Assembly (NCBI GenBank): GCA_044221335.1
Contig: JBGAPI010000013.1
Location: 43,256-107,255, forward strand
Reading direction: 5' to 3'
Source of the DNA: Ahniellaceae bacterium
Lineage (GTDB): Bacteria > Pseudomonadota > Gammaproteobacteria > Xanthomonadales > Ahniellaceae
DNA: 64,000 nt
Positions 5,109 to 64,000 of the stretch are shown here, in pieces. A model generated the notes under the pieces. The model searched no databases. It saw only the letters and a list, made by a program, of their open reading frames with translations, and was not told the DNA's origin. Numbering within the stretch: position 1 is the stretch's first letter; every line of letters starts with the position of its first letter. Position numbers and translations under genes: made by a program.

Positions 5109-5211
5109 GCCTCGCGCCGCTCCGACGGGAGGCGAGGTGCCTGCCGGAAGTCACCACTTTCGGCGGAACGCTTGTCGCCACCGCTCTCGCGGCCGACACT
5201 AGTTCGCATCG

Positions 5212-35639: not shown

Positions 35640-35645
35640 CCGGCG

Positions 35646-35750
35646 ATTGTAGGGCGGGCACTGCCCGCCGTTGCCACGGCGCCTCGCCATGGCGGGCTCT
35701 GCCCGCTATGGCCATGACGGCTCGCGATGGCGGGCACTGCCCGCCCTACC
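35646..35750. repeat. REP3 BIME-like cluster (3 units in alternating orientation)
   Basis: ttgtagggcgggcactgcccgccgttgcc / cgccatggcgggctctgcccgctatggc / gcgatggcgggcactgcccgccctacc. The last unit overlaps the lipoprotein stop codon. Confidence 0.8.
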
Positions 35751-48232: not shown

Positions 48233-48325
48233 CCGCGATGTCCGAGCGGCGGAAGCCGCGACCCGAGACGCCTCGTACCCGGGGCTCACGCCCCTCGGAC
48301 ATCGCGGCCTGCGCCGCTCCTGCCC
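48233..48325. repeat. Degenerate REP2-like inverted repeat
   Basis: gccgcgatgtccgagcggcggaagccgcga ... cggacatcgcggcctgcgccgctcc. Confidence 0.55.
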
Positions 48326-48331
48326 GGGTTG

Positions 48332-48362
48332 CATGTCCGCTTTCCCCCGGCATTCCCGTCCC
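48332..48362 (+). promoter_or_regulatory. Copy C of the conserved TTTCCC-N4-5-ATTCC-N2-TCC upstream motif (shared with 52739 and 53458)
   Basis: catgtccgcTTTCCCCCGGCATTCCCGTCCC, 32 bp upstream of the beta-helix protein ATG. Confidence 0.35.
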
Positions 48363-48393
48363 TTACGGCAATCCCCACCTCGGACCTGCCGCC

Positions 48394-49458
48394 ATGCTCC
48401 GTCGCCTCGCTCTCGCCACCGCCCTTGCCGCCGCTGCCAGTCCGGCGTGCCACGCGGAAGTGCTGTGCATCAGCACGGCCGCGCAGCTGCGCAACGCGCT
48501 GATCGCCGCGGCGAGCAGCGCCTCGGCAACCGAGATCCGCCTGCACCCGGGCTTCTACTCGGTGCCCGCGGCGAGCGGCAGCGCGGTGTCGCTCAGCTAC
48601 TCGGCGAATTCCGATCTCAGCATCAGCGGCGGCTGGCGCGACGTCGGCGGCTCCTGCTCCACGCAGGGCGGCTCCCCCGACGACACCGTGATCAGCGCCG
48701 GCGGTGTCGGCCAGCTGTTCAGCGTGTTCCTGCAGACCGGCGCCGCGACCCGCTTCGAGATCAACAACGTCAGCCTGCGCCAGGGCGATCTGTCCGCCGG
48801 CGGCGGCCCCTCCGCCTGCCTCGCGATCGAGACCGACGGCAGTTCCGACGCCACCATCCTGATCGACCGCAACGAGTTCCGCCTGTGCAACCGCATCGGC
48901 GGCAGCGGCAGCGCGTTGGCGCTGACCGCGCGCAGCGCCACCGTTTACGTCCGCGGCAACGTGTTCGCCGACAACGGCAACACCGCGGGGGCGGTGTTCC
49001 TGAAGTCGCTCGGCGGTTCGATCAGCTATGTCAGCAACAACACCATCGCCAACAATCCGCAGTTCGGCGCCGGCGGCGGCCCGGGCGGCCTGCAGATCAC
49101 CGGGCTCGCCGGCGACTTCTTCTGGGTCACCAACAACGTGCTGTGGAACAACGGCACCGGCAACGGCTACGACCTGCTGGCGAACGCTCCGGCGGAGGCG
49201 CTGCTCAACAACCTGATCGGCCAGCGCGCGCCGCTGCCGGCCGGCGCCGCGGACATCAACAACCTCAGCGTCGACCCGGGGTTCACCAGCATCGTCGACT
49301 TCCGTCCGCGCACCGACTCGCCGCTGCGCAACACCGGCGTCAGCCCCAGCGGCAGCATCGTGGAGGTGGACTTCGACAACCTGCCGCGGGTGGCGGGCAG
49401 CAAGATCGATCGTGGCGCCTACGAGTACGACGAGGCCTTCGCCAACGGCTTCGAGTAG
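48394..49458 (+). CDS. Secreted right-handed beta-helix protein (choice-of-anchor Q / pectin-lyase-fold-like)
   Basis: Signal peptide MLRRLALATALAAAASPACHA. Repetitive Gly/Asn-rich beta-helix repeats (NNTIANN, VTNNVLWNNGTGNG). Ends IDRGAYEYDE, typical of choice-of-anchor Q domains. Confidence 0.65.
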   Translation: MLRRLALATALAAAASPACHAEVLCISTAAQLRNALIAAASSASATEIRLHPGFYSVPAASGSAVSLSYSANSDLSISGGWRDVGGSCSTQGGSPDDTVISAGGVGQLFSVFLQTGAATRFEINNVSLRQGDLSAGGGPSACLAIETDGSSDATILIDRNEFRLCNRIGGSGSALALTARSATVYVRGNVFADNGNTAGAVFLKSLGGSISYVSNNTIANNPQFGAGGGPGGLQITGLAGDFFWVTNNVLWNNGTGNGYDLLANAPAEALLNNLIGQRAPLPAGAADINNLSVDPGFTSIVDFRPRTDSPLRNTGVSPSGSIVEVDFDNLPRVAGSKIDRGAYEYDEAFANGFE

Positions 49459-49617
49459 GGGCGGCCGCGGCGCGGATCTTCCGGCGAAGCCGGCGCCCGG
49501 ATCGCCGCCGAGGCCGGCGGCGCGCATCCACCCTCCGGCACGGGAGAGCGCGGGCGGAGGCCCTGCTAAAATCGGGCGATCCGAGGCGGCATCGTCGCCG
49601 CCGTACCGCGCATCGCC

Positions 49618-50217
49618 GTGATCGAACGCCTGCCTCGCAGCGACCACTTCACCGTCCTCCTCGACCGTTGGCGCTCCGGCGACCGCGACGCCGAGCGCGC
49701 GCTGGTGCAGGAGTGCTACCCGCTGATGAAGGAGATCGCGGCGGGGCAGCTGCGCCGGACCCGCGGGCTGGCGCTGCAGACCACCGAGCTTGCGAACGAG
49801 GCCTACCTCCGGCTGACTGGCATCCAGGACGTCGACTGGCGCGACCGCCGCCACTTCATGGCGATCGTCGCGACCGTGATCCGCCGGCTGCTGGTCGACC
49901 TGGTGCGTGAAGGGGGCGCGCAGAAGCGCGGTGGCGCGTCCTACGTCGTGTCGCTGGACGACGCCGAGGGCGGTGCCCAGGCGCCAGCGAGTGCGGAGGG
50001 CTTCGTCGACTGGAGCATGATCGAACGGGCACTGACGGCACTCGAACGCGAGGACGCCGAGTCGGCCCAGGTGGCCGAACTGAAGGTCCTGGTCGGACTG
50101 TCGGTGCAGGACATCGCCGACGAGATGGGCAGCTCGGTCGCCACCGTCGGGCGCCAGTGGCGCTTCGCCAAGTCCTTCCTCGCGGACCATCTGCGCGACA
50201 GCGCCCCCGACGCCTGA
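49618..50217 (+). CDS. ECF-type sigma factor (planctomycete-type / TIGR02999-like, usually paired with a Ser/Thr kinase)
   Basis: GTG start. LLDRWRSGDRDAERALVQECYPLMKEIAAGQLRR matches the N-terminal signature of this ECF group. Sigma region 2 and region 4 (VQDIADEMGSSVATVGRQWRFAKSFL) are present. Confidence 0.8.
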   Translation: MIERLPRSDHFTVLLDRWRSGDRDAERALVQECYPLMKEIAAGQLRRTRGLALQTTELANEAYLRLTGIQDVDWRDRRHFMAIVATVIRRLLVDLVREGGAQKRGGASYVVSLDDAEGGAQAPASAEGFVDWSMIERALTALEREDAESAQVAELKVLVGLSVQDIADEMGSSVATVGRQWRFAKSFLADHLRDSAPDA

Positions 50218-50220
50218 GCG

Positions 50221-52734
50221 ATGGCGAGCGTCCGGTCGATCTTCGAGGCCGCGCTGGCGCGGCCGGCCGCCGAGCGCGAGGCGCTGGTGCGGGAGCTGGC
50301 GGACGGGGACCTGGCCCTGGCCGCGCGGGTCCAGCGACTGCTTGCGCTGGACGCCGCCGGCGTCCACACCGGGGACGTCAGTCCGGCCGCGGATCGCGCC
50401 GCCGCGCTGCTCGAGGAGCACGCACTGGTCGGCGTCGCGCTGGATCGCTACCGCATCGTCGCGCCGCTCGGCGCCGGCGGCATGGGCCGGGTCTTCGTGG
50501 GCGAGCGCATCGACGGCCAGTTCGAGCAGCGCGTCGCGGTGAAGTTCATCGAGGTCGCCGGCCTCGCCCCGGCCGCGCGCGCGCGCCTGGTCGAGGAGCG
50601 TCGCCATCTCGGCGTGCTGCGGCATCCCTACATCTGCCGGATCCTCGACGCCGGCCTCGGCCCGCAGGACCGCCCTTACGTCGTGATGGAACTGGTCGAG
50701 GGCCAGCCGCTCGTCGACTATTGCGATCAGCAGCGGCTCGGCATCGACGCCCGCCTGGCGGTGTTCCGCCGGGTCCTCGCGGCCGTGCGGCACGCGCACG
50801 CGGCGCTGATCGTGCACTGCGATCTCAAGTCCTCGAACATCCTGGTCGATCGGGCCGGCCTGCCGAAGCTGCTCGACTTCGGCATCGCGCGGCCCCTGCG
50901 CCAGCCGGACCCGAGTGCGGACGAACCGCGGTTCCTGTCGCCCGCGAGCGCCGCGCCGGAGCAGTTCCGCGGCGAGGCGGTGTCGGTGGCGACCGACATC
51001 TACGCACTCGGTCTGCTGCTGTACCGGCTCCTGGCGGGACGCGAGCCGTTCGAGCTCCTCGGTCTCGACGTCGCGGCGATCGAGGCGCTGACCCTCGAGG
51101 CCGCCCCCCCGCCGATGGCGCAGCGCGCGGACGACGATCCGTCCGCGGCGGCACGGCTCGGACTGCGGCCCGGCGCCTGGAAGCGACGCCTCGCCGGCGA
51201 CCTCGAGGCGATCGTGCAGCAGTGCCTCGAGAAGGACCCGGCCCGGCGCTACGCCAGCGTCGACCAGCTCGATGCCGATCTGGCCGCGGTGCTGGCGCAC
51301 CAGCCGATCGCGGCGCGCGCGGACCAGCGCGGCTACCGCCTGCGCTGCTTCCTGCGGCGCCATCGCAGCAGCGTCGCCTTCGCCGCCACCCTGGTGCTCG
51401 GCCTGACGACGACGGTCGTCGTGCTCTGGCGGCAGCAGCTCGAAGTCAGCGCGCAGCGCAACCAGGCGCTGCTCGAGCGCGATCGGGCGGAGGCTGCGCT
51501 CGGCATCCTCGAGGACGCCTTCCTCGCGGCCGATCCCTCGGAGTCGCTCGGCGTCGACACCCGCATCGGCGACGTGCTCGGGGCGGCCGAGCCCGCGATC
51601 GACGCTGTCGCCGAGCGCCAGCCGGACATCGCGGCGTCGCTGTACCGGACGCTGGCCGAGATCCATTCGGGCCTGCGCTCGGACGGCCGCGCCGCGGCAT
51701 TGGCGCACGCCGCGCGCACCCACGCCGAACTCGCCCATACCGGTCCGGTGCTGGTGCCGTACTGGATCCTGGAGGCGCGGACGCTGATCGACAATGGCCG
51801 CTTCGACGCTGCCGAGGGCCTGCTGACGCGCGCGGCCGCGGAAACGCCGGCGCTGCCGCCGGAGTGGTACATCGCCCGGGCGCGGCTGGTCAGCTTCCGC
51901 AACTCCTCCGCGGACGCGATCGCCGACGCCGAACGCGCCGTCGCGATGACCGAGGCCCGCGGCCCGACCGACCGGATCGCGACCGCCGCGCAGTGGCAGC
52001 TGGCGGAGGCGCAGCGCTCCGCCAAGGACCCGCGCGCGGCCCTCGCGACCCTCGATCGGATGCTGGAATGGCAGCGCCAGGCCGACGGCGAGCATCCACG
52101 CGCCCTGATCACCCGGCTGCGACGACTGGTCGCGCTGGAACAGGCCGGCGAGCTCGCGAAGGCCTCCGTCGACGCGGTCACCCTGATCGCCGCCGTCGAC
52201 GCCCGCTTCGGCGCGCACAGCGTGTTCGCCGCGACCGCACGCACCGCGCACGGCCGCGTGCTGCGCAAGCTCGGTGCGCTCGGACCGGCCCTGGCGCGGC
52301 TCGACGAAGCGCTGGCGATCCAGCGCGACCTGCTCGGTCCTCGCCATCCGACCACGGTCATGTCGGAATACAACCTGGCGGTGGCGCAATGGGCGGACAG
52401 CGGTCGCGCCGCCTCCACCGAGGAGCACCTGCGCAACGCGTTCACCAACGGCCTGCGGACCTTCGGCGCCAGCAGCAATATCGCGATGCTGTACCGGACC
52501 GCCCTGGCCCAGTTCCTCAACGACGCCGGGCGCGGCGATGCCGCCCTGGCCGTGCTGCTGGAGCCCGACCCGCGATCGGGATACGGCCAGTCGACCCCGG
52601 GCAATCAGGCGCGTTTCCGCGAGCAGCTCGCGATCGCCCACCGCGGCGCCGACTGCGCGAAACGACCGCGCCCGTCCTGCGGGGAAGCTGCCGCGCTGCT
52701 CGAGCAGACGTCGCCCCCGGGCGCCCCTCCGTGA
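50221..52734 (+). CDS. Membrane-anchored Hanks-type Ser/Thr protein kinase with extracytoplasmic TPR-like domain
   Basis: Kinase subdomains: GAGGMGRVF, VAVKFI, HCDLKSSNILV, DFGIAR, APEQ. One TM segment (VAFAATLVLGLTTTVVVLW). About 430-aa alpha-helical TPR-like C-terminus. Start 4 nt after the ECF sigma stop. Confidence 0.85.
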   Translation: MASVRSIFEAALARPAAEREALVRELADGDLALAARVQRLLALDAAGVHTGDVSPAADRAAALLEEHALVGVALDRYRIVAPLGAGGMGRVFVGERIDGQFEQRVAVKFIEVAGLAPAARARLVEERRHLGVLRHPYICRILDAGLGPQDRPYVVMELVEGQPLVDYCDQQRLGIDARLAVFRRVLAAVRHAHAALIVHCDLKSSNILVDRAGLPKLLDFGIARPLRQPDPSADEPRFLSPASAAPEQFRGEAVSVATDIYALGLLLYRLLAGREPFELLGLDVAAIEALTLEAAPPPMAQRADDDPSAAARLGLRPGAWKRRLAGDLEAIVQQCLEKDPARRYASVDQLDADLAAVLAHQPIAARADQRGYRLRCFLRRHRSSVAFAATLVLGLTTTVVVLWRQQLEVSAQRNQALLERDRAEAALGILEDAFLAADPSESLGVDTRIGDVLGAAEPAIDAVAERQPDIAASLYRTLAEIHSGLRSDGRAAALAHAARTHAELAHTGPVLVPYWILEARTLIDNGRFDAAEGLLTRAAAETPALPPEWYIARARLVSFRNSSADAIADAERAVAMTEARGPTDRIATAAQWQLAEAQRSAKDPRAALATLDRMLEWQRQADGEHPRALITRLRRLVALEQAGELAKASVDAVTLIAAVDARFGAHSVFAATARTAHGRVLRKLGALGPALARLDEALAIQRDLLGPRHPTTVMSEYNLAVAQWADSGRAASTEEHLRNAFTNGLRTFGASSNIAMLYRTALAQFLNDAGRGDAALAVLLEPDPRSGYGQSTPGNQARFREQLAIAHRGADCAKRPRPSCGEAAALLEQTSPPGAPP

Positions 52735-52738
52735 GAAA

Positions 52739-52784
52739 CTGATCGACTTTTCCCGCCGATTCCGATTCCTGCAGCGCGACGTCC
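52739..52784 (+). promoter_or_regulatory. Copy A of the conserved upstream motif ctgatcgaCTTTTCCCGCCGATTCCGATTCC ... CGTC
   Basis: 26/31 identity with copy B at 53458-53489, including an identical ctgatcga prefix. 50 bp upstream of the Cys-rich secreted protein ATG. Confidence 0.5.
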
Positions 52785-52833
52785 CGCCTCGGCGATCGTC
52801 GACGCCCCCCATTCATTGCCACGGAACCTGCCC

Positions 52834-53349
52834 ATGAACCGCATCCACCCTTCGCGCTGCGCCGCTGTCGCCGTCGCCGCCCTTGCCGCCGGCTCCGCCC
52901 TCGCGTCCGGCCCGCCGCCGACCTGCCCCGACCTGCAGCAGGTTCCGCCCGAGCAGTGTCCCGAGACACAGAAGTTCTCCGCGATGACGCCACTCGATTT
53001 CGTCACCGCCGCCCAGCCGGACGACTGCACCATCGAGCGGCCGGGCAAGATCGGGCCGTGGCTGCGCCATTGCGAGCCGCGGATCAACCCGCCGCCGCAG
53101 CAGCAGCTCGACTGCTCCGAGGGACTCGGCACCGCGACCTGCGAGGCCTATCCGCAGGGCGCGGAGATCCGCTACACCTGGAGCTTCAGCGGCGGCGTTT
53201 CCGGCACGCCGATCGCGAACACCACGCAGTCGATGTTCACGGTCAACTGCCTGCCGCCGAACTACGTCGGCCGGATCTACGTGACGCTGATCGGTCCGAA
53301 CAACTTGTCGAGCTCGACCTCCATGCTCGTGAGCTGCCCCCCGCAGTGA
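52834..53349 (+). CDS. Small Cys-rich secreted protein (hypothetical)
   Basis: Signal peptide MNRIHPSRCAAVAVAALAAGSALASG. 8 Cys in the mature part. 171 aa. Confidence 0.55.
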   Translation: MNRIHPSRCAAVAVAALAAGSALASGPPPTCPDLQQVPPEQCPETQKFSAMTPLDFVTAAQPDDCTIERPGKIGPWLRHCEPRINPPPQQQLDCSEGLGTATCEAYPQGAEIRYTWSFSGGVSGTPIANTTQSMFTVNCLPPNYVGRIYVTLIGPNNLSSSTSMLVSCPPQ

Positions 53350-53457
53350 GGCACGAACCGCGGTGACTCGCCGACGTCACTCGCGACGCCCGGATGGCGG
53401 TTTCCCCGCCTCCGGGCGTCGTCGTTTGTGGGCCTGCCCACCGCGCGACATCGGCCG

Positions 53458-53502
53458 CTGATCGATCTTTCCCGCGCCTTCCGATTCCCTGCCCAAGCCG
53501 TC
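53458..53502 (+). promoter_or_regulatory. Copy B of the conserved upstream motif ctgatcgaTCTTTCCCGCGCCTTCCGATTCCC ... CGTC
   Basis: 67 bp upstream of the RHS gene ATG. Confidence 0.5.
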
Positions 53503-53568
53503 GATACGGAGGGCCGCGCTGCAACCGCACGCGGCTCGACGACGGTGCCACGCAACCATGGAATCGAC

Positions 53569-56500
53569 ATGAAGACGCAACTCACCGCCCTCGCGGCGGC
53601 GATCACGCTCGTCTGGTCGGCCGCTTCCCACGCCCAGGTCGAATGGGGCCAGGAGTACGGCAACCGGATCAAGTCCCGGCAGACGATCAGCGCGCTGGGC
53701 CCCGACCTGTTCGGCGAGCAGGTGAACCTGTTCGACGGCACGACCTCGTTCTCCGCCACCGACATCGACCTGCCGGGCAACAACGCGCTGCCGGTCGCGG
53801 TGAAGCGCAAGCTCGCCGTCGGCTCGACCAGCAATGCCGGGCAGCAGGCACTGTTCGGCGACTGGGACCTCGACCTGCCGTATCTGTCCAACATCTCGAC
53901 GACCAGCAGCGGCTGGAACGCGCCGGCCGATCCGAACTTCTACTGGCGGGTCGTCGGCGGCTCCGCCGCGCGCTGCAGCGCGCCGCAGCAGGCCGGCGAC
54001 GTGGTGACCCCGGACATCGCCAACAGCCTCAACGGCGCCGCCGGCGGCGGCGGCGAGATGCTGCTGCTGACCGCATCCACCTCGAGCAAGCTGGTCCGTC
54101 CGACGCTGCCCGGCACGCGCTGGGTCACCAAGGGCCTGTGGTACCTCGGCTGTGTGCCGACGCTGGCCAGCGGCCACGCCGGCGAGGGCTTCTGGGCGGT
54201 CGACCCGCAGGGCAACAAGTACACCTTCGACTGGATGGTGCCGTTCACCTATCCGGGCTTTTCCACGCCGGCGATCAAGGCCGGCTCCGAGATCGTGCAG
54301 AACCGCTCCGAGCTGCGCCTCTATCCGACCAAGGTGGAGGACCGCTTCGGCAACTGGGTCAAGTACCGCTGGCAGGGCCGCAAACTGCTCGACATCACCG
54401 CCAGCGACGGCCGCCGCATCGACCTCACCTACGGTGCCGACGATCAGATCGTCAGCGCGACCGCCCACGGCAAGACCTGGAACTACGCCTACGTCGACTA
54501 CCCGCAGGCCAATGTCGGCGGCCATCTGACCGGGGTCACGCTGCCGGACGGCTCGGCGTGGAGCTACGGCCAGAATCCCGGACCGTACGTCGCCTACGAG
54601 CAGCACTATGAGACCCGCTACTCCTCGACGCCCGGCGGCTCGCCGATGCAGATCCAGGTCGAAGTCCTGGAGAAGGTCGCGTTCTGCTCCTACGACCACT
54701 ACCTGTCGCCGGCGGTGGTGCCGTTCGAGATGCGTCATCCCTCGGGCGCCCGCGGGGTCTTCAACTTCAAGACGATGCGCCATGGCCGCACCAACACCCC
54801 GGGCGAGTGCGCGTTCAGCTGGGACACCCACGACACGTCGAACCGCGAGGCCCAGAACAACCACAACCTCTATCCGGCCTTCAAGGACGTCTGGTCGCTG
54901 ACCGGCAAGACGCTGTCGGGCCCGGGCATGCCCGATGGCACCTGGACCTACGCCTACGACAACCTGCAGGCCTGCATCGACAGGACCTGCGCGAACAGCG
55001 GCACGCCGGTCACCAAGACCGTCACCGTCACCGAGCCGGACGGTTCGAGCACGGTCAGCACCTTCGGCAAGAACTACGGCATCGACGAGGGTCAGCTGCT
55101 CGCGGTCGAGACCCGCCAGGGCGCGACCGTGCTGTCGCGCACGAGCTACAGCTACGTCTCCAACACCGAGGCGCCGAACCAGCCGTTTCCGGATCTTGTC
55201 GGCGTGACAGCCACCGAATACGGCGATCCGTGGGCGAGTACCGCGCTGCGACCGCAGAAGGCGACGTCCACGGTCCGTGGCGGCGTCACCTTCAGCTCGG
55301 TCATCGACAGCTTCGACGCCTTCGCGCACCCGACCCGCACGACGCGTGGCAACAGCCAGGGCAACGCCCGCACCGACGTCATCGACTACTTCCACGACCT
55401 CGGGCGCTGGGTGATCGGGCAGGTGGCGAGGACCACCAACGTCGACACCGGCATGGTGGAGTCCGAGACCGGCTATACCGCGCTGGCACAGCCGCAATGG
55501 ACGAAGAAGTTCGGCAAGCTGCAGCAGACGCTGGCCTACAACCCCGACGGCACCCTCGCGAGCGTGACCGACGGGCGCGGCAACGTCACCTCGCTGTCGA
55601 ACTGGAAGCGCGGCATTCCGGGAACGATCGGCTACCCGGCGACCGCGGAAGCACCCACCGGGAGCAGCAAGTCCGCCACGGTCAATGATCTCGGCTGGAT
55701 CACCGCCCTGACCGACGAGACGGGCAGCAAGACCTGCTACGGCTACGACAATGTCGGCCGGATCAACCTGGTGACCTATCCGTCGGCGAGCACGCCCGGC
55801 ATCTGCGATGCCAGTCGCTGGAATCCCACGGTCATGGACCTGCAGTTCGTCGCCAGCGCCGAGCACGGCATCGCCGGTGGCCACTGGCGCGCCAGCAACC
55901 ACACCGGATCGGGCTACTCGACGCTGTACTACGACGCCCTGCTGCGCCCGGTGCTGGAAGAGAAGTACGACGCCGGCGACGTGGCCGGTTCGCTGTCGCA
56001 GGTGGTGAAGCGCTACGACAGCAAGGGCCAGCTGCTGTTCACCTCGTATCCGACCCGCGATGTCGGCGACATCGCCACGGTGACCCAGGGCACGCGGACT
56101 GTGTACGACGCCCTCGGCCGTCCGACCCGCAGCGAGCAGGACAGCGAGCTCGGCGTGCTGGCCACCGTCACCGAGTACACCACCGGCCTCGAGACGCGGA
56201 TCACCAATCCGCGCGGCGCGGCGACCACGACGCGATTCCTCGCGTGGGACACGCCGAACTTCGACCTGCCGGTGCAGAGCCTGCAGCCGGAAGGCAAGGT
56301 CGTCGAAGTCGCCCGCCATCCGCGGTTCGGCTGGCCGCTGGCGATGACCCAGCGCGCCGCCGACAACAGCGTCTCGCAGCAGCGCCGCTACGTCTACGAC
56401 GGCAACGCTCAGCTGTGCAAGACGATCGAGCCGGAGACCGGCGTCACGGTGACCGGCTACGACGCGGCCAACAATCCGGCCTGGATGGCCGCGGGACTGT

Positions 56501-58416
56501 CCGGCAGCGACGCGAGCTTCAACTCCACCACGGACTGCAGCTACGCCGCCGCCTATGGTTCCGGTCGTCGCGTGGACCGCAGCTTCGACGCCCGCAACCG
56601 CCTCCTCACTCTGGCCTTCCCCGATGGTCGCGGCGACCAGTCCTGGACCTACGAGAAGGATGGTCTGTCGAATGCGATCACGACGTGGAATGGCGCCGGC
56701 CGGACCCAGCCGGTGGTCAACAGCTACGCCTACGACGTCCGCCGCCTGCTGCAGACGGAGTCGATCGCGCAGACCGGCTGGTACACCTGGAGCGTCGGCC
56801 ACAGCTATGACGCCAACGGCTTCGAGCGCTGGTTGAGCTATCCGACCGGCCTCGTTCTCGACTTCGCTCCGAATGCGCTCGGCCAGGTGACCCAGGTGCG
56901 CGACCAGAACAACGTCGCCTACGCCAGCAATGCCAGCTATCACCCGAACGGCACGCTGAAGCAGTTCACCTACGGCAACGGCATCGTCCACACGATGACG
57001 CAGAACGCCCGCCAGCTTCCGGCCCGGGTCCGCGACGGTGCGGCGATGGACTACGAGTACTCCTATGACGCCAACGGCAACTTCGCGTCCATCTGGGACC
57101 ACGCCCGCGACAGCGGGAACGGCATGTTCGGTCGCTGGATGACCTACGACAACCTCGACCGCCTGACCTCGACCGGTTCCTGCACCTTCGGTGGCGACTG
57201 CTGGCACCGCTACAGCTACGACGCGCTCGACAACCTCCGCTCGTGGACGCTGACCGGGGTCAAGGACTACTCGAACTATGTCTACGACGCCAACAACCGC
57301 CTGACGGCGATCCGCAACACGGCGGGGACCACGCTGGTCAGCCTCGGGTACGACGCCCAGGGCAACCTCAGCTCGAAGAACGGCCAGGCCTTCTCCTTCG
57401 ACTTCGGCAACCGGCTGCGCGGCGCCCTCGGCAGCGAGACCTACCGCTACGACGGCCGCGGTCGCCGCGTCCAGCAGAGCAAGCCGGGCAGCGACGCGCT
57501 GTCGTTCTACAGCAGCGCCGGACAGATCCTCTTCAGCTACGACAAGTCCGGTGGCGAGAAGACGCACGAGAACATCTACCTCAACGGCAGCGTCATCGCG
57601 GAGGTCGATCACGACTGGCCGAGCAACGCGGTGCTCGCGGTGAAGTATCAGCACACCGACGCGCTGGGGAGCCCGGTCGCCGTGACCGGCAGCAACGGGC
57701 AGCTGATCGAGCGCAACGACTACGAGCCCTACGGTGCGGTGATCGGCAAGCCCGCGTTCACCGGCATCGGCTACACCGGCCACGTGATGGACGGCGGTAC
57801 CGGCCTCACCTACATGCAGCAGCGCTACTACGATGCGTCGATCGGGCGGTTCCTGTCCGTCGATCCGGTGGTCGCGGACCCGGCGAAGGCGTCCGGATTC
57901 AGCCGCTACTGGTATGCCAACGGCAATCCGTATCGCTACACGGACCCGGATGGCCGCGAAGTCGTCATCCACATCTCGCGCGATACCTATTCGGATTCGA
58001 CCGTGACGTCGCGGATCACGGTGACCAGCGATCGCACCGATGAGCATTTCGAGGGTTACACCCTCGAGACCCAGCATGCGGGTCAGAACGGCGACAAGAA
58101 GCCCTTGCAGGAGGGAACCTACAGCGGCAAGGTGCGCACGGACGGCCCGAAGGGCTTTCGGATCGAGCTGCAGAACACCCCGAAGTTCCGCAACATCCAG
58201 ATCCACTCCGGCAACACCAAGAAGGACGTGAAGGGCTGCTTCGCCGCGGGGACGACGCGCTCGGGAGACAGCGTCGGGAACAGCCGGTCGGCGATGTCGC
58301 AGATCCAGCAGGTCGTCAATGCCGATGGAACCGGGAAGATTCGCGTGGTGGTCGACGGCCCCAGCGATCCCCCGAAGCCGAACGTCGACGAATCGCGCAA
58401 ACCGAAGTCGCAATGA
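53569..58416 (+). CDS. Sec-signal RHS/YD-repeat polymorphic toxin with L,D-transpeptidase-like C-terminal domain
   Basis: Signal peptide MKTQLTALAAAITLVWSAASHAQ. Dozens of YD repeats (GRxxxxxYDxxG). RHS core YEPYGAV ... RYYDASIGRFLSVDP ... NPYRYTDPDGRE (DPxG autoproteolysis motif). About 150-aa C-terminal domain containing IQIHSGN...KGCFAAG (His...Gly-Cys as in the YkuD/LDT fold). Confidence 0.85.
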   Translation: MKTQLTALAAAITLVWSAASHAQVEWGQEYGNRIKSRQTISALGPDLFGEQVNLFDGTTSFSATDIDLPGNNALPVAVKRKLAVGSTSNAGQQALFGDWDLDLPYLSNISTTSSGWNAPADPNFYWRVVGGSAARCSAPQQAGDVVTPDIANSLNGAAGGGGEMLLLTASTSSKLVRPTLPGTRWVTKGLWYLGCVPTLASGHAGEGFWAVDPQGNKYTFDWMVPFTYPGFSTPAIKAGSEIVQNRSELRLYPTKVEDRFGNWVKYRWQGRKLLDITASDGRRIDLTYGADDQIVSATAHGKTWNYAYVDYPQANVGGHLTGVTLPDGSAWSYGQNPGPYVAYEQHYETRYSSTPGGSPMQIQVEVLEKVAFCSYDHYLSPAVVPFEMRHPSGARGVFNFKTMRHGRTNTPGECAFSWDTHDTSNREAQNNHNLYPAFKDVWSLTGKTLSGPGMPDGTWTYAYDNLQACIDRTCANSGTPVTKTVTVTEPDGSSTVSTFGKNYGIDEGQLLAVETRQGATVLSRTSYSYVSNTEAPNQPFPDLVGVTATEYGDPWASTALRPQKATSTVRGGVTFSSVIDSFDAFAHPTRTTRGNSQGNARTDVIDYFHDLGRWVIGQVARTTNVDTGMVESETGYTALAQPQWTKKFGKLQQTLAYNPDGTLASVTDGRGNVTSLSNWKRGIPGTIGYPATAEAPTGSSKSATVNDLGWITALTDETGSKTCYGYDNVGRINLVTYPSASTPGICDASRWNPTVMDLQFVASAEHGIAGGHWRASNHTGSGYSTLYYDALLRPVLEEKYDAGDVAGSLSQVVKRYDSKGQLLFTSYPTRDVGDIATVTQGTRTVYDALGRPTRSEQDSELGVLATVTEYTTGLETRITNPRGAATTTRFLAWDTPNFDLPVQSLQPEGKVVEVARHPRFGWPLAMTQRAADNSVSQQRRYVYDGNAQLCKTIEPETGVTVTGYDAANNPAWMAAGLSGSDASFNSTTDCSYAAAYGSGRRVDRSFDARNRLLTLAFPDGRGDQSWTYEKDGLSNAITTWNGAGRTQPVVNSYAYDVRRLLQTESIAQTGWYTWSVGHSYDANGFERWLSYPTGLVLDFAPNALGQVTQVRDQNNVAYASNASYHPNGTLKQFTYGNGIVHTMTQNARQLPARVRDGAAMDYEYSYDANGNFASIWDHARDSGNGMFGRWMTYDNLDRLTSTGSCTFGGDCWHRYSYDALDNLRSWTLTGVKDYSNYVYDANNRLTAIRNTAGTTLVSLGYDAQGNLSSKNGQAFSFDFGNRLRGALGSETYRYDGRGRRVQQSKPGSDALSFYSSAGQILFSYDKSGGEKTHENIYLNGSVIAEVDHDWPSNAVLAVKYQHTDALGSPVAVTGSNGQLIERNDYEPYGAVIGKPAFTGIGYTGHVMDGGTGLTYMQQRYYDASIGRFLSVDPVVADPAKASGFSRYWYANGNPYRYTDPDGREVVIHISRDTYSDSTVTSRITVTSDRTDEHFEGYTLETQHAGQNGDKKPLQEGTYSGKVRTDGPKGFRIELQNTPKFRNIQIHSGNTKKDVKGCFAAGTTRSGDSVGNSRSAMSQIQQVVNADGTGKIRVVVDGPSDPPKPNVDESRKPKSQ

Positions 58417-58478
58417 GCGTCGGATGGCCCGCGCGCGGTCGCGCGCGGGCCATCCCCGGGCTCCCCCCGAATCGGAAG

Positions 58479-59375
58479 TCAGTTCGATCGTGACGCGGCG
58501 AAGTGCGCGATGACCGGATCCTCGATCCTGGACAGCACGCCCGCCGCCAGGTCATGCCCCATCCCCTCCACCATCACCAGCCGCGCGCCGGGAATCTTGC
58601 GCGCGGTGTCGCGGCCGCCCGCCGGCGGCGCCAGCGGGTCGTGGGTGCCGTGGATCACCAGCGTCGGCGTGCGGATCGCGCGGATCTGCGCCGAGCGGTC
58701 GCCCGACGCGATGATCGCCAGCAGCTGGCGCGCGCTGCCGGCCGGGTCGTAGCTGCGCCTGATGCCGCGGCGGATGCGCTCGCGCAGTTCCTCCGGCGGT
58801 GTCGGGAAGCCCGGACTGCCGATCGCCTGGAACAGCCGCACGTAGCGCTCGACGATCTCCGCCTCGGCCGCATCCACCGGCGGCTTCGACAGCATCAGCC
58901 GCGCGATCTTCGGGCTCGGCGGCGGCAGCCAGCGGCTGCCGGTGGTCGACATGATCGAGGTCAGCGTCAACAGCCGGGTCGGATGCTCGGCCGCCATCAC
59001 TTGCCCGATCATCCCACCCATCGACACGCCGACCACGTGGGCGGCGTCGATCCTCAGCGCATCGAGCACGCCGACGCTGTCGGCGGCCATCTCCGACAGC
59101 GTGTAGGGCGCCCGCACCGGCAGGTGCATCCAGTAGCGCAGCAGCGCCGCGCCGATCCGCACCGGCGTTCGCGCCGTGATCCGCGAGGACAGCCCGATGT
59201 CGCGGTTGTCGAAACGGATCACGAAGTAGCCGGCCGCGACCAGCCGCTGGCAGAACGCCTCCGGCCACGCGATCAGCTGCATGCCGAGCCCCATCACCAG
59301 CAGCACCGCCGGCCGCGCCGGATCGCCGAAGGTCTCGACCTCGATCTGGATTCCGTTCGCTGCGACCTGGGTCAT
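58479..59375 (-). CDS. Alpha/beta hydrolase fold protein
   Basis: Nucleophile elbow GVSMGG. Catalytic His near the C-terminus (MGHDL). 298 aa. Confidence 0.8.
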   Translation of the reverse strand: MTQVAANGIQIEVETFGDPARPAVLLVMGLGMQLIAWPEAFCQRLVAAGYFVIRFDNRDIGLSSRITARTPVRIGAALLRYWMHLPVRAPYTLSEMAADSVGVLDALRIDAAHVVGVSMGGMIGQVMAAEHPTRLLTLTSIMSTTGSRWLPPPSPKIARLMLSKPPVDAAEAEIVERYVRLFQAIGSPGFPTPPEELRERIRRGIRRSYDPAGSARQLLAIIASGDRSAQIRAIRTPTLVIHGTHDPLAPPAGGRDTARKIPGARLVMVEGMGHDLAAGVLSRIEDPVIAHFAASRSN

Positions 59376-59764
59376 CGCCGCATTGTAGGAGCCCCCACCC
59401 CATCCATGGCGTGGCGCGGTCGGCAGCCAACGAAGCCGCTGCGCCAGCCCCCAGGAGTCACCGCGCGCCGGGAGCACGCGCGACCCGCGAAGTTGTCCCG
59501 AAAGGCGGCCGGCGGGAATACCCGCCGTCAGCAGGCGACCCGGTACGCGGTACCGGGCGAGGGTCGTTGGTGCAATGCACCGACTTCGAAGCCCGGGAGA
59601 TGAGGCTCCATCAAGCGTCCCGTTGGATGGAAGCGGCGGAAGTCGCGACCGTCACCGATCACGATGGTCGAGGATCGTCGTCACGCCGCCGAAAGCACAC
59701 CCCGAGCACCCCGCCTCGCTAGACTCCCGTCGAACGACGCACACCACGGCACCCGCACCCACCC

Positions 59765-60175
59765 TTGAAGCCGCTCCCCGCTCCCGGCCCGCACATCGCC
59801 CGCTCCGACTCCCGCGGCGATTACCTGCGCATCGAGATCGCCGGCCACCGCGGCGACTTCGAGTCCGGGATCGCCGTCTGGCGCGCGATCGGCGAGCTGA
59901 CCCGCAGCCGCGGCGCGAAACGCCTGCTGGTCGTCAGCAGGCTCACCGGCCCCCTGCCCAGCGCCGAGGAACAGCGCACCCTGATGCGCGCGCTGATCGG
60001 CAGCGGCTTCGAGGGCGTGCGCACCGCACTCGTGGTCTCCGACTCGCGCCGCCTCGCCGATCTCGAGCACGGCGAGATGGAAGCCCGCGAACTGGGCCAG
60101 GAATCCCGCGTGTTCAGCTCCGAGAAGCAGGCCGAGGTCTGGCTGCACTACGGCGAGTCGGGTCGCATCGGCTGA
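59765..60175 (+). CDS. Hypothetical protein
   Basis: 136-aa ORF with strong GC3 bias. Flanked by 16-bp direct repeats cgcctcgctagactcc (59711-59726 and 60226-60241). Confidence 0.45.
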   Translation: MKPLPAPGPHIARSDSRGDYLRIEIAGHRGDFESGIAVWRAIGELTRSRGAKRLLVVSRLTGPLPSAEEQRTLMRALIGSGFEGVRTALVVSDSRRLADLEHGEMEARELGQESRVFSSEKQAEVWLHYGESGRIG

Positions 60176-60253: not shown

Positions 60254-60330
60254 GCGTCCGTAGCTCAGTTGGATAGAGCACCAGGCTTCGAACCTGGTGG
60301 TCGGGGGTTCGAGTCCCTCCGGGCGCGCCA
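60254..60330 (+). tRNA. tRNA-Arg (anticodon TCG)
   Basis: GCGTCCG-TA-GCTC-AGTTGGATA-GAGC-A-CCAGG-CTTCGAA-CCTGG-TGGTC-GGGGG-TTCGAGT-CCCTC-CGGGCGC-G-CCA. Full cloverleaf with encoded CCA. Confidence 0.85.
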
Positions 60331-60339
60331 CTTCTTCCT

Positions 60340-60400
60340 CTTGCAGATCAATCGGTTGTGAGATCGCTAGTCGCGATTTCTTGAAACGACCTGAAGTCCG
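60340..60400. promoter_or_regulatory. Three helically phased direct repeats of tgtgccca immediately 3' of tRNA-Arg (candidate arm-type/regulator sites)
   Basis: gtgcccatcc tgtgcccatgtc tgtgcccacgac, in a lower-GC spacer between the tRNA and hsdM. Confidence 0.4.
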
Positions 60401-60624
60401 TGCCCATCCTGTGCCCATGTCTGTGCCCACGACTCCGGGCTAGGTCGGCCTCATGACCACTAGGCCGTGCCTCAACGATGCGAGCGGCTAAGCGTCACGC
60501 CTGACGATCTGGCGGAGGGATGCAGCGCTATCGATCGGCCTCGCCCTCGATCCAGAAGCGCGCTCGTCGATAACTCAGCGCAGCTGCGATCCGACAGAAT
60601 AGGCGCCCATAAAGGAAACGATAC

Positions 60625-62652
60625 ATGGCGGACCACACCTATTTCTCGAACCTGATCTGGCAGATCGCCGACCTCCTGCGCGGGCCCTATCGTCCGCCCC
60701 AGTACGAGCGGGTGATGCTGCCGATGACGGTGCTGCGGCGCTTCGACTGCGTGCTCGCGCCGACGCGGGACACGGTGGTCGCCGAGTACGCGCGTGCCAA
60801 GGGCGGCAAGCTCACCGGCGACGCCCTCGACACCAAGCTCAACAAGGTCGCCGGTCAGCACTTCCACAACCACTCGGCGCTCGACTTCGCGAAGCTGAAG
60901 GGTGATCCGGACAACATCAATAAGCACCTGGTGAGCTACCTCAAGGGGTTCTCAGCCAACGTTCGCCGGATCTTCGACTACTTCGAGTTCGAGGCCGAGA
61001 TCGAGCGGATGCACGAGGCCAACATTCTATTTCTCGTGGTGTCGAAGTTCGCCGACGTCGATCTGCACCCCTCGATCGTGCCGAACGAGCAGATGGGACT
61101 GATCTTCGAGAACCTCATCCGCCGCTTCAACGAGCTCGCGAACGAGACGGCTGGCGATCACTTCACGCCCCGCGAAGTGATCCGACTCATGGTCAACCTG
61201 CTGTTCATCCACGACGACGAGCTTCTGGCGACGGCGGGCACGGTGCGCAAACTGCTCGACCCGGCGTGCGGTACCGGCGGCATGCTGGCCGAGGCGCAAC
61301 GCTATCTGCGCGAGCACAACGGCGAGGCCCGGCTCTACGGCTACGGTCAGGACTACAACAAGCGCGCCTTCGCGACGGCGGCCTCCGACATGCTGATGAA
61401 GGAGGTCAGCCATAATGGCGGCGGCGACAACGTGCGATTCGGCGACATCTTCACCGACGACCAGTTCCCGGCCGAAACCTTCGACTACTTCCTGAGCAAC
61501 CCGCCGTTCGGCGTCGACTGGAAGAAGCAACAGAAGGAGGTGGTGAAGGAGCACGAGAAGCTGGGCTTCGACGGCCGGTTCGGCGCCGGCCTGCCGCGGG
61601 TGAACGATGGCGCGCTGCTGTTCCTGCAGCACATGTGGAGCAAGCGCGAAGACGTGAAGCCGAAGGAACACAAGGAGGGCTCGCGGCTCGCGATCGTCTT
61701 CTCCGGCTCGCCCATGTTCACGGGCGGTGCCGGCTCGGGCGAGAGCGAGATCCGTCGCTGGCTCCTCGAGAACGACTGGCTCGAGGCCATCGTCGCGCTG
61801 CCGGAGTCGATGTTCTACAACACCGGCATCGGCACCTATGTCTGGGTCGTCACCAACCGCAAGGAGAAGCGGCGCAAGGGCAAGGTGCAGCTCCTCGACG
61901 CGCGCGATGTGTGGACCGCGGGCGGCAGCGAGGACAGCAAGCGCAGCCTCGGCGACAAGCGGCGGCACATGACCATCGCGCAGATCGACGAGGTCGTGCG
62001 CCTCTACGGCAAGTTCGAAGAGGGCCCGCGCTCCAAGATCTTCGACAACGCCGACTTCGGCTATACCCGCGTCACCATCGAGCGCCCGCTGCGCCTGCGC
62101 TACCAGATGACGACGGACGACAAGGCGCGCTTCCTCGACGCCTGCCCACACCTGCTCGACGACGTGCAGGCCATCGACAAGGCGCTCGGCCGCGAGCCGC
62201 GCCTGGACTGGCCCGCGACGTGGGACGAGATCGAGGCGCTGCTGAAGAAGCGCGGGAGCCGCTGGAAGGCGACCGAGCAGAAGCTGTTTCGCTCCGTGTT
62301 CACGCAGCGCGAGGCGATGGCCGAGGCCGTCCCGGCCGGAGGGCGTGGGTCGGGCTTCGAGGCCGACGCCGACCTGCGTGACTTCGAGAATGTGCCGCTG
62401 AAGGAGGACATCGCTGTCTACTTCGAACGTGAGGTGAAGCCGCACGTCCCCGACGCGTGGATGCCGGGCATCGGCGTTGAGGATGGCAAGGCGGTCGTGA
62501 TCGACGAGAGCAAGGCCAAGCCGGGCTACGAGATCAGCTTCAATCGCTACTTCTTCACCTTCACACCACCTCGGTCGCTGCACGACATCGACACCGACCT
62601 TCAGAGAGCCGAAGACGAGGTGCTCCGTCTGCTTCGCGAGGTGGTCGCGTGA
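60625..62652 (+). CDS. hsdM: Type I restriction-modification system DNA methyltransferase subunit HsdM
   Basis: N6-adenine MTase motifs: LDPACGTGGML (motif I) and NPPFG (motif IV). 675 aa. RBS aaaggaaac upstream. Confidence 0.9.
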   Translation: MADHTYFSNLIWQIADLLRGPYRPPQYERVMLPMTVLRRFDCVLAPTRDTVVAEYARAKGGKLTGDALDTKLNKVAGQHFHNHSALDFAKLKGDPDNINKHLVSYLKGFSANVRRIFDYFEFEAEIERMHEANILFLVVSKFADVDLHPSIVPNEQMGLIFENLIRRFNELANETAGDHFTPREVIRLMVNLLFIHDDELLATAGTVRKLLDPACGTGGMLAEAQRYLREHNGEARLYGYGQDYNKRAFATAASDMLMKEVSHNGGGDNVRFGDIFTDDQFPAETFDYFLSNPPFGVDWKKQQKEVVKEHEKLGFDGRFGAGLPRVNDGALLFLQHMWSKREDVKPKEHKEGSRLAIVFSGSPMFTGGAGSGESEIRRWLLENDWLEAIVALPESMFYNTGIGTYVWVVTNRKEKRRKGKVQLLDARDVWTAGGSEDSKRSLGDKRRHMTIAQIDEVVRLYGKFEEGPRSKIFDNADFGYTRVTIERPLRLRYQMTTDDKARFLDACPHLLDDVQAIDKALGREPRLDWPATWDEIEALLKKRGSRWKATEQKLFRSVFTQREAMAEAVPAGGRGSGFEADADLRDFENVPLKEDIAVYFEREVKPHVPDAWMPGIGVEDGKAVVIDESKAKPGYEISFNRYFFTFTPPRSLHDIDTDLQRAEDEVLRLLREVVA

Positions 62653-63872
62653 TGTTCATCGACCAGTGGACCAAGATCGCGCCGAAGCACTGGTCGCGGA
62701 AGAAGCTGAAGCACGTCGCATCACTTCGGAGCGGCGAGTCCATCACCGCTGACTCGATCATGGACGAAGGCGACTTCCCCGTTTACGGCGGGAACGGCCT
62801 ACGGGGGTACACCGGCGATTACACGCATGAGGGCGAGTTCGTGCTCATCGGTCGTCAGGGAGCGCTCTGCGGCAACGTAAACTACGCGAAGGACCGCTTC
62901 TGGGCCTCCGAACACGCGGTCGTCGTCACGAGGCTTGGTAACGTCGACCTGACTTGGCTAGGTGAATTGCTCCGGTACCTCAATCTCAATCGACTCAGCC
63001 AGTCGGCCGCCCAGCCGGGCATCTCTGCTGAGGAGGTAAGCAATGTCCTGCTCGCAGTTCCTCCGCTTGAGGAGCAGCGCGCGATCTCCGCGTACCTCAA
63101 GAGCGAGACTGCGCGGCTCGATGCACTGGTTGCTGCGAAGCAACGACTAATCGACCTGCTCGCCGAGAAGCGCAAGGCCATCATCGCCACCGCCGTCACG
63201 CGCGGGCTCGATCCAAAGGTGAAGCTGCGGGATTCCGGTGTGCCGTGGATGGGTGAGATCCCGGCGCATTGGGAAACCAAGCGTCTTAAGTATCTCGGAC
63301 AAGCCATCATTGGGCTGACCTACGCGCCAGCCGACGCAGTGATGGATGGCTCTGGCGTCCTCGTACTTCGAGCGTCTAACGTGCAGGAACGACGGATTGT
63401 CCTTGATGACAACGTCTTCGTAACTACTGCCATTCCTCCCGAGCTTATGACTCGTCGCGGCGACATTCTCATCTGTTCCCGAAGCGGGAGTCGGGCGCTC
63501 ATCGGAAAGTGCGCCCTGATCGACGCTGAATCAGAAGCAATGACTTTTGGCGCGTTTATGACTGTGTTCAGGGGCAAGTACAACTCGTACCTGTTTCACG
63601 TTTTCAATTCGCCTCTGTTTGAGTACCAAGCTGGCGCTTTTGGGACGTCTACCATTAACCAACTCACAGTCGAAACCCTTAGCAATATGGAAGTCCCGCT
63701 TCCGCCTGACGGTGAGCGTCAGGCAATTGTCGAGCACATCGCGCGCTCGACCGCGAAGCTCGACTCAGTGCGTGCGGCGATCGAGCGCACAATCGCGCTG
63801 CTCACTGAGCGCCGCTCCGCACTCATCGCCGCCGCGGTGACCGGCCGGCTCGACGTGGGGGCGGCAGCATGA
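62649..63872 (+). CDS. hsdS: Type I restriction-modification specificity subunit HsdS
   Basis: Two target-recognition domains separated by conserved coiled-coil repeats (LPPLEEQRAISAYL ... and LPPDGERQAIVEHI ...). Overlaps the hsdM stop (ATGA). Confidence 0.85.
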   Translation: MMFIDQWTKIAPKHWSRKKLKHVASLRSGESITADSIMDEGDFPVYGGNGLRGYTGDYTHEGEFVLIGRQGALCGNVNYAKDRFWASEHAVVVTRLGNVDLTWLGELLRYLNLNRLSQSAAQPGISAEEVSNVLLAVPPLEEQRAISAYLKSETARLDALVAAKQRLIDLLAEKRKAIIATAVTRGLDPKVKLRDSGVPWMGEIPAHWETKRLKYLGQAIIGLTYAPADAVMDGSGVLVLRASNVQERRIVLDDNVFVTTAIPPELMTRRGDILICSRSGSRALIGKCALIDAESEAMTFGAFMTVFRGKYNSYLFHVFNSPLFEYQAGAFGTSTINQLTVETLSNMEVPLPPDGERQAIVEHIARSTAKLDSVRAAIERTIALLTERRSALIAAAVTGRLDVGAAA

Positions 63873-64000
63873 AGGTCCGCGAGCTCACGGTCACCAACTT
63901 TCGTGGGTTCGCCGGTGAGCGGCGCTTCCAGTTGTCCAATCGCTTCACCGTGATCGCTGGAATCAACGGGCGTGGGAAGAGTTCGCTGCTCGATGGTCTT
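63869..64000 (+). CDS. AAA/SMC-like ATPase (RecF/OLD-family N-terminus), partial; embedded in the type I R-M locus
   Basis: MKVRELTVTNFRGFAGERRFQLSNRFTVIAGINGRGKSSLLDGL with Walker A GINGRGKSS. Overlaps the hsdS stop. Truncated by the window edge. Confidence 0.6.
   Translation, partial: MKVRELTVTNFRGFAGERRFQLSNRFTVIAGINGRGKSSLLDGL

Follow-up and report, generated by a model that had tools for sequence, protein, structure and literature searches.

An RHS toxin encoded by an Ahniellaceae bacterium ends in a tip that is probably (at about 75%) a thiol L,D-peptidase acting on peptidoglycan in the periplasm of target cells. Its gene lies in a 64,000-nucleotide stretch of contig JBGAPI010000013.1 (assembly GCA_044221335.1, positions 43,256 to 107,255), hereafter called the window. 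Judging by its sequence, the protein appears to be a polymorphic toxin of the RHS (YD-shell) type that is exported via Sec and belongs to a family widespread in Xanthomonadales, and its tip belongs to the Pfam family DUF5675. Relative to the searchable literature three points are new: DUF5675 is a major RHS tip, it appears to have its own linked and unannotated periplasmic immunity family, and the present locus carries the tip without that family. DUF5675, a family of unknown function, gains from this a well-supported fold, an active-site pair, a compartment and a widespread role as an RHS tip.

An intact RHS gene with a DUF5675 tip

The gene has the following parts, in coordinates of the window.

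53566..58416, + strand: RHS/YD-repeat polymorphic toxin gene, 1616 amino acids (aa), stop included; GC content at third codon positions (GC3) 0.92
53566..53634, + strand: Sec signal peptide MKTQLTALAAAITLVWSAASHA, 23 aa, cleaved before Q; read from the translation, by inspection
57721..57960, + strand: RHS-associated core up to and including DPDGRE (57943-57960), the boundary for self-cleavage and recombination
57961..58413, + strand: C-terminal toxin domain of 151 aa, DUF5675, predicted YkuD-like fold; codons of the predicted catalytic pair at 58204-58206 (His82) and 58237-58239 (Cys93)

The open reading frame (ORF) is intact across all 1616 codons, and its GC3 is the codon-position pattern of a real gene in a genome of ~70% GC; the 1678-aa ORF antisense to it (53377-58413, − strand) is a high-GC artefact. 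Its product is identical (100%) to database protein P0266. It matches RHS_repeat (E 2e-16) and, on residues 1386-1463, the Rhs-associated core TIGR03696 (E 3e-19). The core ends in NPYRYTDPDGRE, with PDGRE and the V that follows it at 57946-57963. Relatives of the protein are common in Xanthomonadales, at 38-64% identity and typically ~90% query coverage, i.e. all but the tip, and they carry many different tip families. The XadM-type RHS adhesins of Xanthomonas may be related as well. Similarity to three relatives breaks at the DPDGRE boundary, for instance at residue 1464 in locus L004 and at residue 1465 (nucleotide 57956) in locus L026. The protein has two of the marks of an RHS/YD-repeat polymorphic toxin, namely repeats with a core ending in DPxG[L/R] and a variable tip with a break in similarity at the core motif; the third, a cognate immunity gene directly behind it on the same strand, is missing. 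A scan of the genome collection with the RHS N terminus returned one Lysobacteraceae metagenome-assembled genome (MAG), and the RHS gene had no match in the plasmid collection.

A preliminary description of this DNA had placed a tail of ~150 aa behind the RHS core motif. This is borne out by the 151 aa that follow DPDGRE, which end at a stop codon at 58414-58416. The tail matches DUF5675 (PF18925) with an E value of 2.8e-19 and 69.5 bits (cut-off 26.7 bits) over profile positions 1-112 of 114. A word-indexed homologue search with the tail alone gave no match, and a genome-collection scan with it gave no close relative. An exhaustive search of 1.84 billion representative proteins found 660 relatives at E≤1e-3, 122 of them at E≤1e-10, the best being ~50% identical. 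In most of these relatives the DUF5675 domain begins right where an RHS core stops, for example behind NNPYRYxDPDGR or DPxGL; the remainder are stand-alone proteins of 127-145 aa, or carry the domain behind other regions. Six proteins (P0089, P0096, P0099, P0105, P0107 and P0114) have acidic linkers in front of the domain, in which a QRQ motif recurs, instead of an RHS core, which suggests a second delivery context. The start of P0089 is presumably typical of DUF4157-type toxin carriers. No experimental characterisation of DUF5675 was found in the literature searched, where the family is mentioned in only three papers.

Conserved residues and predicted fold of the tip

The His...Gly-Cys motif that had drawn attention to the tail is present as IHSGN-x6-KGCF and, to judge by the family match of the tail and its conservation, is no product of chance. 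Across 72 homologues, among them distant stand-alone forms that at 127-145 aa equal the phage copies in size, seven residues (E36, G52, Y54, H82, G84, G92 and C93) never vary. Conservation of the presumed catalytic pair, which had been proposed as a check, was also seen among 96 RHS-type tails, with Cys93 at 100% and His82 at 97%. The tip itself has a GC3 of 0.86 and retains all of the near-invariant residues.

Structure prediction from the single tip sequence gave an unusable model (predicted local distance difference test score, pLDDT, 48), and an alignment of 72 sequences was used instead. The predicted structure has the beta-rich catalytic fold of YkuD enzymes. The highest fold comparison scores were obtained with the L,D-carboxypeptidases Pgp2 (10.1) and Csd6 (10.0), followed by the L,D-transpeptidase Ldtfm (9.5), LdtMt2 (9.2), LdtMt5 (8.9), a YcbB-type L,D-transpeptidase (V. 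cholerae LdtA, 7aj9; 8.3), the amidase DpaA (8.1), Bd1075 (8.1) and Tlde1a (7.1). The next, unrelated structure scored 4.3. Two independent sources agree with this assignment. A 2026 preprint lists DUF5675 as 'C82-like' from predicted structures, with its function stated to be unknown, and DUF5675 homologues of crAss-like phages, which lie in virion-gene regions, are annotated as 'transpeptidase catalytic domain protein'.

The predicted active site may be a variant of the classical one, which it matches in part. The classical YkuD motif is H-x-x(14-17)-[S/T]-H-G-C-h, with 14-17 intervening residues, whereas the His-Cys spacing in the tip is 11 residues, near that of Tlde1 (H121/C131) and DpaA. 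The tip keeps the His, the Gly-Cys and the hydrophobic residue, and the residues before Gly-Cys are K/E, not [S/T]-H. As modelled, the tip is a compact, sequence-divergent branch of the YkuD (L,D-transpeptidase, MEROPS C82) fold; by sequence it is not a member of the Tlde1/DUF2778 or YkuD families. Of the earlier suggestion of a Tlde1-like L,D-transpeptidase fold, the YkuD-like fold is supported; the family, however, is DUF5675 and not Tlde1.

A linked immunity family in other loci

In five loci retrieved by look-up (L001/L002, L003 from Acidiphilium, L005/L006, L007 and L008), the next gene on the same strand encodes one of a set of mutually related proteins of 136-208 aa (BLASTP links from 2e-38 to 4e-5). 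The two genes either share 4 nt at the toxin stop or are separated by no more than ~180 nt. A family member is also found directly downstream in all ten loci from a metagenome scan (L016-L025), with hidden Markov model E values of 7e-33 to 6.5e-16, including two in which the tip sits on a long RHS ORF (L021 and L024). Once near-duplicates are merged and L015 is set aside, the family is the next same-strand gene in 13/13 other distinct loci with readable downstream sequence.

The immunity proteins start with signal peptides or lipoprotein boxes and have the motifs LDGG(D/E)LED and MLPLSxVD in common. The 13 proteins had no Pfam match, including to Imm16 and Imm57, and no sequence match in the PDB. 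Their N termini point to the periplasm as the compartment in which they would work. An exported immunity protein would imply that the toxin acts outside the cytoplasm, which fits a peptidoglycan target. On one metagenome contig (ERZ27253762), tips and immunity genes form an array of orphan RHS cassettes (L001 4415-8402), in the order RHS fragment and HEAT-repeat protein, DUF5675 tip and immunity protein, another tip and multi-pass membrane protein. The new family could be used to find and neutralise these toxins.

The locus set aside, L015, has the only other full-length Sec-type DUF5675 RHS gene that was open to inspection, and it too is without the immunity family downstream. Behind its stop (5193-5946) there is a 34-aa ORF, then an IS3-family transposase gene ~250 bp past the stop, and the contig ends soon after. 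L015 is uninformative because of this IS3-type transposase gene and the contig end.

Absence of the immunity gene from the window

The immunity gene expected behind the tip had been described as missing, with only a short gap before a convergent hydrolase gene. This holds. Exactly 62 bp (58417-58478) separate the RHS stop from the hydrolase gene, and the cognate family that exists elsewhere is absent from the window. The gap and the next gene contain the following features.

58422..58455, no strand: perfect 16+16-nt GC-rich hairpin (inverted repeat; −44.4 kcal/mol, z −4.0), unique in the window
58479..59477, − strand: convergent alpha/beta-hydrolase gene (Abhydrolase_1, E 1e-23), outside the toxin system

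The hairpin has no U tract and is not called by a consensus terminator scan; it is likely to be a bidirectional transcription stop. A profile built from the 13 immunity proteins, run against 818 six-frame fragments (≥30 aa) of the window, found no family member (best E 0.37), and an earlier search of the window with a five-member profile had a best E of 0.69. No small overlapping ORF within 58417-58478 with coding-type GC3 or a signal peptide was found either. ORFs considered as hidden immunity genes (58319-58513 on the + strand, 58316-58555 and 58119-58400 on the − strand) were rejected, being without coding-type GC3 and without a signal peptide. Farther downstream lies a small ORF (59765-60175, + strand) of up to 136 aa, absent from the preliminary description, with a GC3 of 0.93, no signal peptide and 88% nucleotide identity in L026. 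It was rejected as an immunity gene as well, its product being cytoplasmic, without Pfam match and kept in a sister strain with a different tip.

Even within this RHS family such an absence is out of the ordinary, since in three relatives the stop codon is met by a small ORF on the same strand. L004, from a Lysobacteraceae MAG, is 60% identical to residue 1464 and unrelated thereafter, and its downstream ORF has Sel1 repeats; L029 is 63% identical to the RHS protein; and in L030, from Lysobacter gummosus, the downstream ORF has a signal peptide.

Exchange of the tip in a sister strain

L026 (run DRR438477) is the same locus in a sister strain. Nucleotide identity is 86.8% from upstream of the start codon to 57956, in the DPDGR codons, and the RHS proteins are 87% identical up to residue 1465 and unrelated beyond. 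There is no nucleotide identity across the tip and the intergenic region, and identity returns, at 93.8%, from 58535 onward, which lies within the last part of the hydrolase gene. Up to their last ~18 residues, the hydrolases of the two strains differ at only about 10 aligned positions; those last residues (codons to about 58535) are homologous but diverged. The exchanged unit therefore consists of the tip, the spacer and the 3' end of the hydrolase gene. That it ends inside a conserved gene points to allelic recombination, the partners being genomes in which RHS and hydrolase genes were already arranged in this way. The L026 tip (~180 aa) is unrelated to the DUF5675 tip and has no Pfam match. 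In the 173 bp between it and the hydrolase gene there is no gene, and hence no adjacent immunity.

The DUF5675 tip thus appears to have entered this genome in an exchanged stretch that reaches from the DPDGR codons into the 3' end of the convergent hydrolase gene, and no immunity gene came with it. Self-protection must then depend on a gene at another place in the genome, on a protein of unrelated type or on an inborn insensitivity.

Function of the tip and protection of the producer

The function that best accommodates these findings is attack on the cell wall. The RHS tip, with its His82/Cys93 pair, would cut peptidoglycan stem peptides in the periplasm of the target cell. The reaction might be a cleavage, of the L,D-carboxypeptidase or the endopeptidase kind, or the exchange of D-amino acids seen with Tlde1; the chemistry and the substrate of the tip are ones that we infer. 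Several results weigh against this assignment. Foldseek of the tip against the PDB found no match; YkuD, YkuD_2 and DUF2778 gave no Pfam match to the tail at E≤1, DUF5675 being the sole one; and sequence and profile searches of PDB chains found neither an L,D-transpeptidase nor any other relative. When E. coli LdtA-E and DpaA were compared with the tip by hhalign, over their catalytic domains, a single weak local match appeared (E 0.096). That match sits on the active-site motif, pairing I81-H82 with IHG and G92-C93 with HGC across a five-residue deletion. Because the sequence, profile and Foldseek-PDB searches miss the link, kinship of the tail with YkuD is visible only at the level of structure. 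The preprint cited above gives no function for DUF5675, and no protein of the family has been biochemically shown to act on peptidoglycan. An intact exported cell-wall toxin without immunity should, moreover, harm siblings, which casts some doubt on its toxicity or expression.

This last point leads to an alternative in which immunity is not required, the domain being a wall-remodelling or lysin-type module, or the gene being silent or decaying. Stand-alone DUF5675 proteins do occur in phage virion or lysis regions. However, RHS architecture, a polymorphic tip and a conserved adjacent immunity family elsewhere are hallmarks of a toxin, and an unbroken ORF of 1616 codons that has coding-type GC3 and keeps every conserved residue does not look like a decaying gene. 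We consider this alternative improbable. Our preferred reading, a toxin directed at peptidoglycan, leaves the protection of the producer to be explained.

The leading explanation, which we hold tentatively, is that toxin and immunity form a normal system but the immunity gene is encoded at another place in the genome, alone as an orphan or within a cluster, so that its absence here is a matter of gene order. The 64 kb of the window are part of a contig at least 107 kb long, other genomes have arrays of orphan tip-immunity cassettes (e.g. L001), and the tip looks intact and under selection, with its near-invariant residues kept and a coding-type GC3. On the other hand, all 13 other distinct loci in which the downstream sequence could be read have the gene immediately adjacent, an adjacent small ORF on the same strand is present in the three members of the RHS family examined besides L026, and no match to the immunity profile occurs within 64 kb. 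Because the sister strain, with a different tip, also lacks an immunity gene, loss of linkage to an orphan would have had to happen twice.

That same pair of strains speaks for the second-ranked explanation, in which the producer needs no immunity: the toxin would be an inter-species weapon of predatory type, with intrinsic insensitivity and freely swapped tips. Insensitivity may come from enclosure of the tip in the RHS shell, from the lack of a receptor for re-entry, or from peptidoglycan that is a poor substrate. Two alleles at a syntenic locus have unrelated tips, neither with an immunity gene; the exchanged segment ends inside the conserved hydrolase gene, suggesting allelic exchange; and the relatives are labelled Lysobacter-group bacteria by their sources. 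Yet the same type of tip keeps its immunity gene wherever the downstream sequence is readable, including behind the long RHS genes of L021 and L024, and the second case without one, L015, is explained more simply by insertion of an insertion sequence and the contig end. We therefore regard this explanation as unlikely. The same caution applies to its specific form, an immunity-free toxin site at which tips are exchanged between the DPDGR codons and the hydrolase gene, with no cognate immunity in the genome and an intrinsically protected producer. Were it true, such a site would mean predatory inter-species use of a toxin class thought to need immunity. If the genome had no immunity gene at all, this would run counter to the expectation that a polymorphic toxin is always accompanied by its antidote, and would hint at how predatory bacteria use such weapons.

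More speculative still is the idea that a secreted Cys-rich protein of 171 aa encoded upstream (52834-53349) is a non-homologous replacement immunity protein or an accessory. Its gene precedes the RHS gene by 216 bp in the same orientation, its signal peptide would bring it to the right compartment, and an upstream 31-nt element that it has in common with the RHS gene is found nowhere else in the window. RHS immunity genes lie downstream, however, and the protein has no similarity to the cognate family and no homologue beside any other fetched RHS gene. We think this has little chance of being correct. An orphan immunity gene elsewhere in the genome thus remains the explanation that we favour, with the reservation already stated.

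Delivery

The preliminary description had also noted a Sec signal peptide in place of PAAR/VgrG features, and we agree. The signal peptide MKTQLTALAAAITLVWSAASHA, followed by Q, is present, and its AxA site with the Q behind it is kept in L026, L004, L029 and L030. No PAAR, VgrG, Hcp, type VI secretion system (T6SS) core or other secretion-system gene was found in the RHS protein or among the ~30 real window genes scanned. Six other full-length DUF5675 RHS proteins likewise have hydrophobic, signal-peptide-like N termini and no PAAR/VgrG, and some have DUF6531 or surface-repeat domains. By analogy, the protein appears to match the signal-peptide (type II secretion system, 'T2SS') class of polymorphic toxins of Zhang et al. 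2012 (PMC3482391), with an export route across the outer membrane that we infer.

Upstream gene, common element and neighbouring genes

The region directly upstream of the RHS gene contains a second candidate for export and two copies of a short element.

52834..53349, + strand: small secreted Cys-rich protein, 171 aa, GC3 0.92, signal-peptide-like N terminus
52739..52769, + strand: 31-nt element, copy 1, ending 64 nt before the start codon of the 171-aa gene
53458..53488, + strand: 31-nt element, copy 2, ending 77 nt before the RHS start codon

The 171-aa protein has eight further cysteines, and PKD is its sole Pfam match, a non-significant one (E 0.089). None of the fetched loci encodes a homologue, the L026 contig starting too far downstream to cover this position, and the protein is unrelated to the immunity family. 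The two copies of the element (CTGATCGAnnTTnCCCGCnnnTTCCGATTCC) are 84% identical. The element is partly kept upstream of the L026 RHS gene and absent from all other loci. Its presence upstream of both genes, with two matches in the window where none is expected, suggests a shared promoter or operator, and the 171-aa protein is possibly co-regulated with the RHS gene.

Farther upstream, the real genes are 48238-49458 (406 aa, weak beta-helix match) and 50221-52734, which encodes a Ser/Thr protein kinase with TPR repeats and may start earlier, near 49600. A 1508-aa ORF opposite these genes (48286-52812, − strand) is a high-GC artefact. About 18 kb from the toxin gene lies a gene of the Asp/Glu racemase family (34938-35690, − strand, E 9e-46), which probably belongs to housekeeping D-amino-acid metabolism; Tlde1-type enzymes exchange D-amino acids. 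On the other side, a tRNA-Arg(TCG) gene (60254-60330) is followed by a fall in GC to 0.55-0.65 and by type I restriction-modification genes (hsdM, 60625-62652; hsdS, 62649-63872), so that 60254-64000 has the appearance of a genomic island that integrated at this tRNA gene. The arrangement in L026 is different, with a gene for a sigma-54-type regulator next to the small ORF at 59765-60175.

Comparison with known systems

Stand-alone phage DUF5675 proteins (e.g. LysPd160 and those of crAss-like phages) are of the same Pfam family as the tip and have the same invariant residues. They differ in being single-domain proteins of 127-145 aa, encoded in virion or lysis regions and without an RHS carrier or, as far as examined, a linked immunity gene. 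In the crAss-like phage cr10_1, the homologue (L027 3372-3791) has hypothetical genes and virion structural genes on its two sides, and a putative holin is encoded a few genes before it. The classical YkuD enzymes (PF03734; the L,D-transpeptidases Ldtfm, LdtMt2 and YcbB, and the L,D-carboxypeptidases/amidases Csd6, Pgp2, Bd1075 and DpaA) have no significant sequence similarity to the tip, which is small (about 130 aa), has no accessory domains and is a toxin tip, not a housekeeping enzyme. As antibacterial leads, enzymes directed against the L,D-linkages of peptidoglycan may be of practical interest.

Closer in predicted function are two groups of toxins. Tlde1 (Tae5) is a Salmonella T6SS effector with L,D-carboxypeptidase/transpeptidase activity and a periplasmic immunity protein, Tldi1; Tlde1/DUF2778 proteins have been shown to act in the periplasm, and some members are fused to RHS proteins. 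The present tip has no DUF2778 (PF10908) match, and in predicted structure it is nearer to classical L,D-transpeptidases and to Csd6/Pgp2 than to Tlde1a. Its RHS protein has a Sec signal and no T6SS link in the scanned window genes, and the DUF5675 immunity family is unrelated to Tldi1 and absent from this locus. In addition, Zhang et al. 2012 (PMC3482391) predicted Tox-LD-peptidase tips on RHS repeats that would attack peptidoglycan cross-links, with Imm16 and Imm57 as immunity proteins. The likeness lies in an L,D-peptidase-fold tip on RHS repeats, in forms with signal peptides and in linked immunity proteins, whereas the immunity family linked to DUF5675 matches no Pfam model. Taken together, these comparisons suggest that the tip on this RHS toxin is a variant of the kind predicted in 2012, and that DUF5675 tips would work in the manner of Tlde1 and Tox-LD-peptidase.

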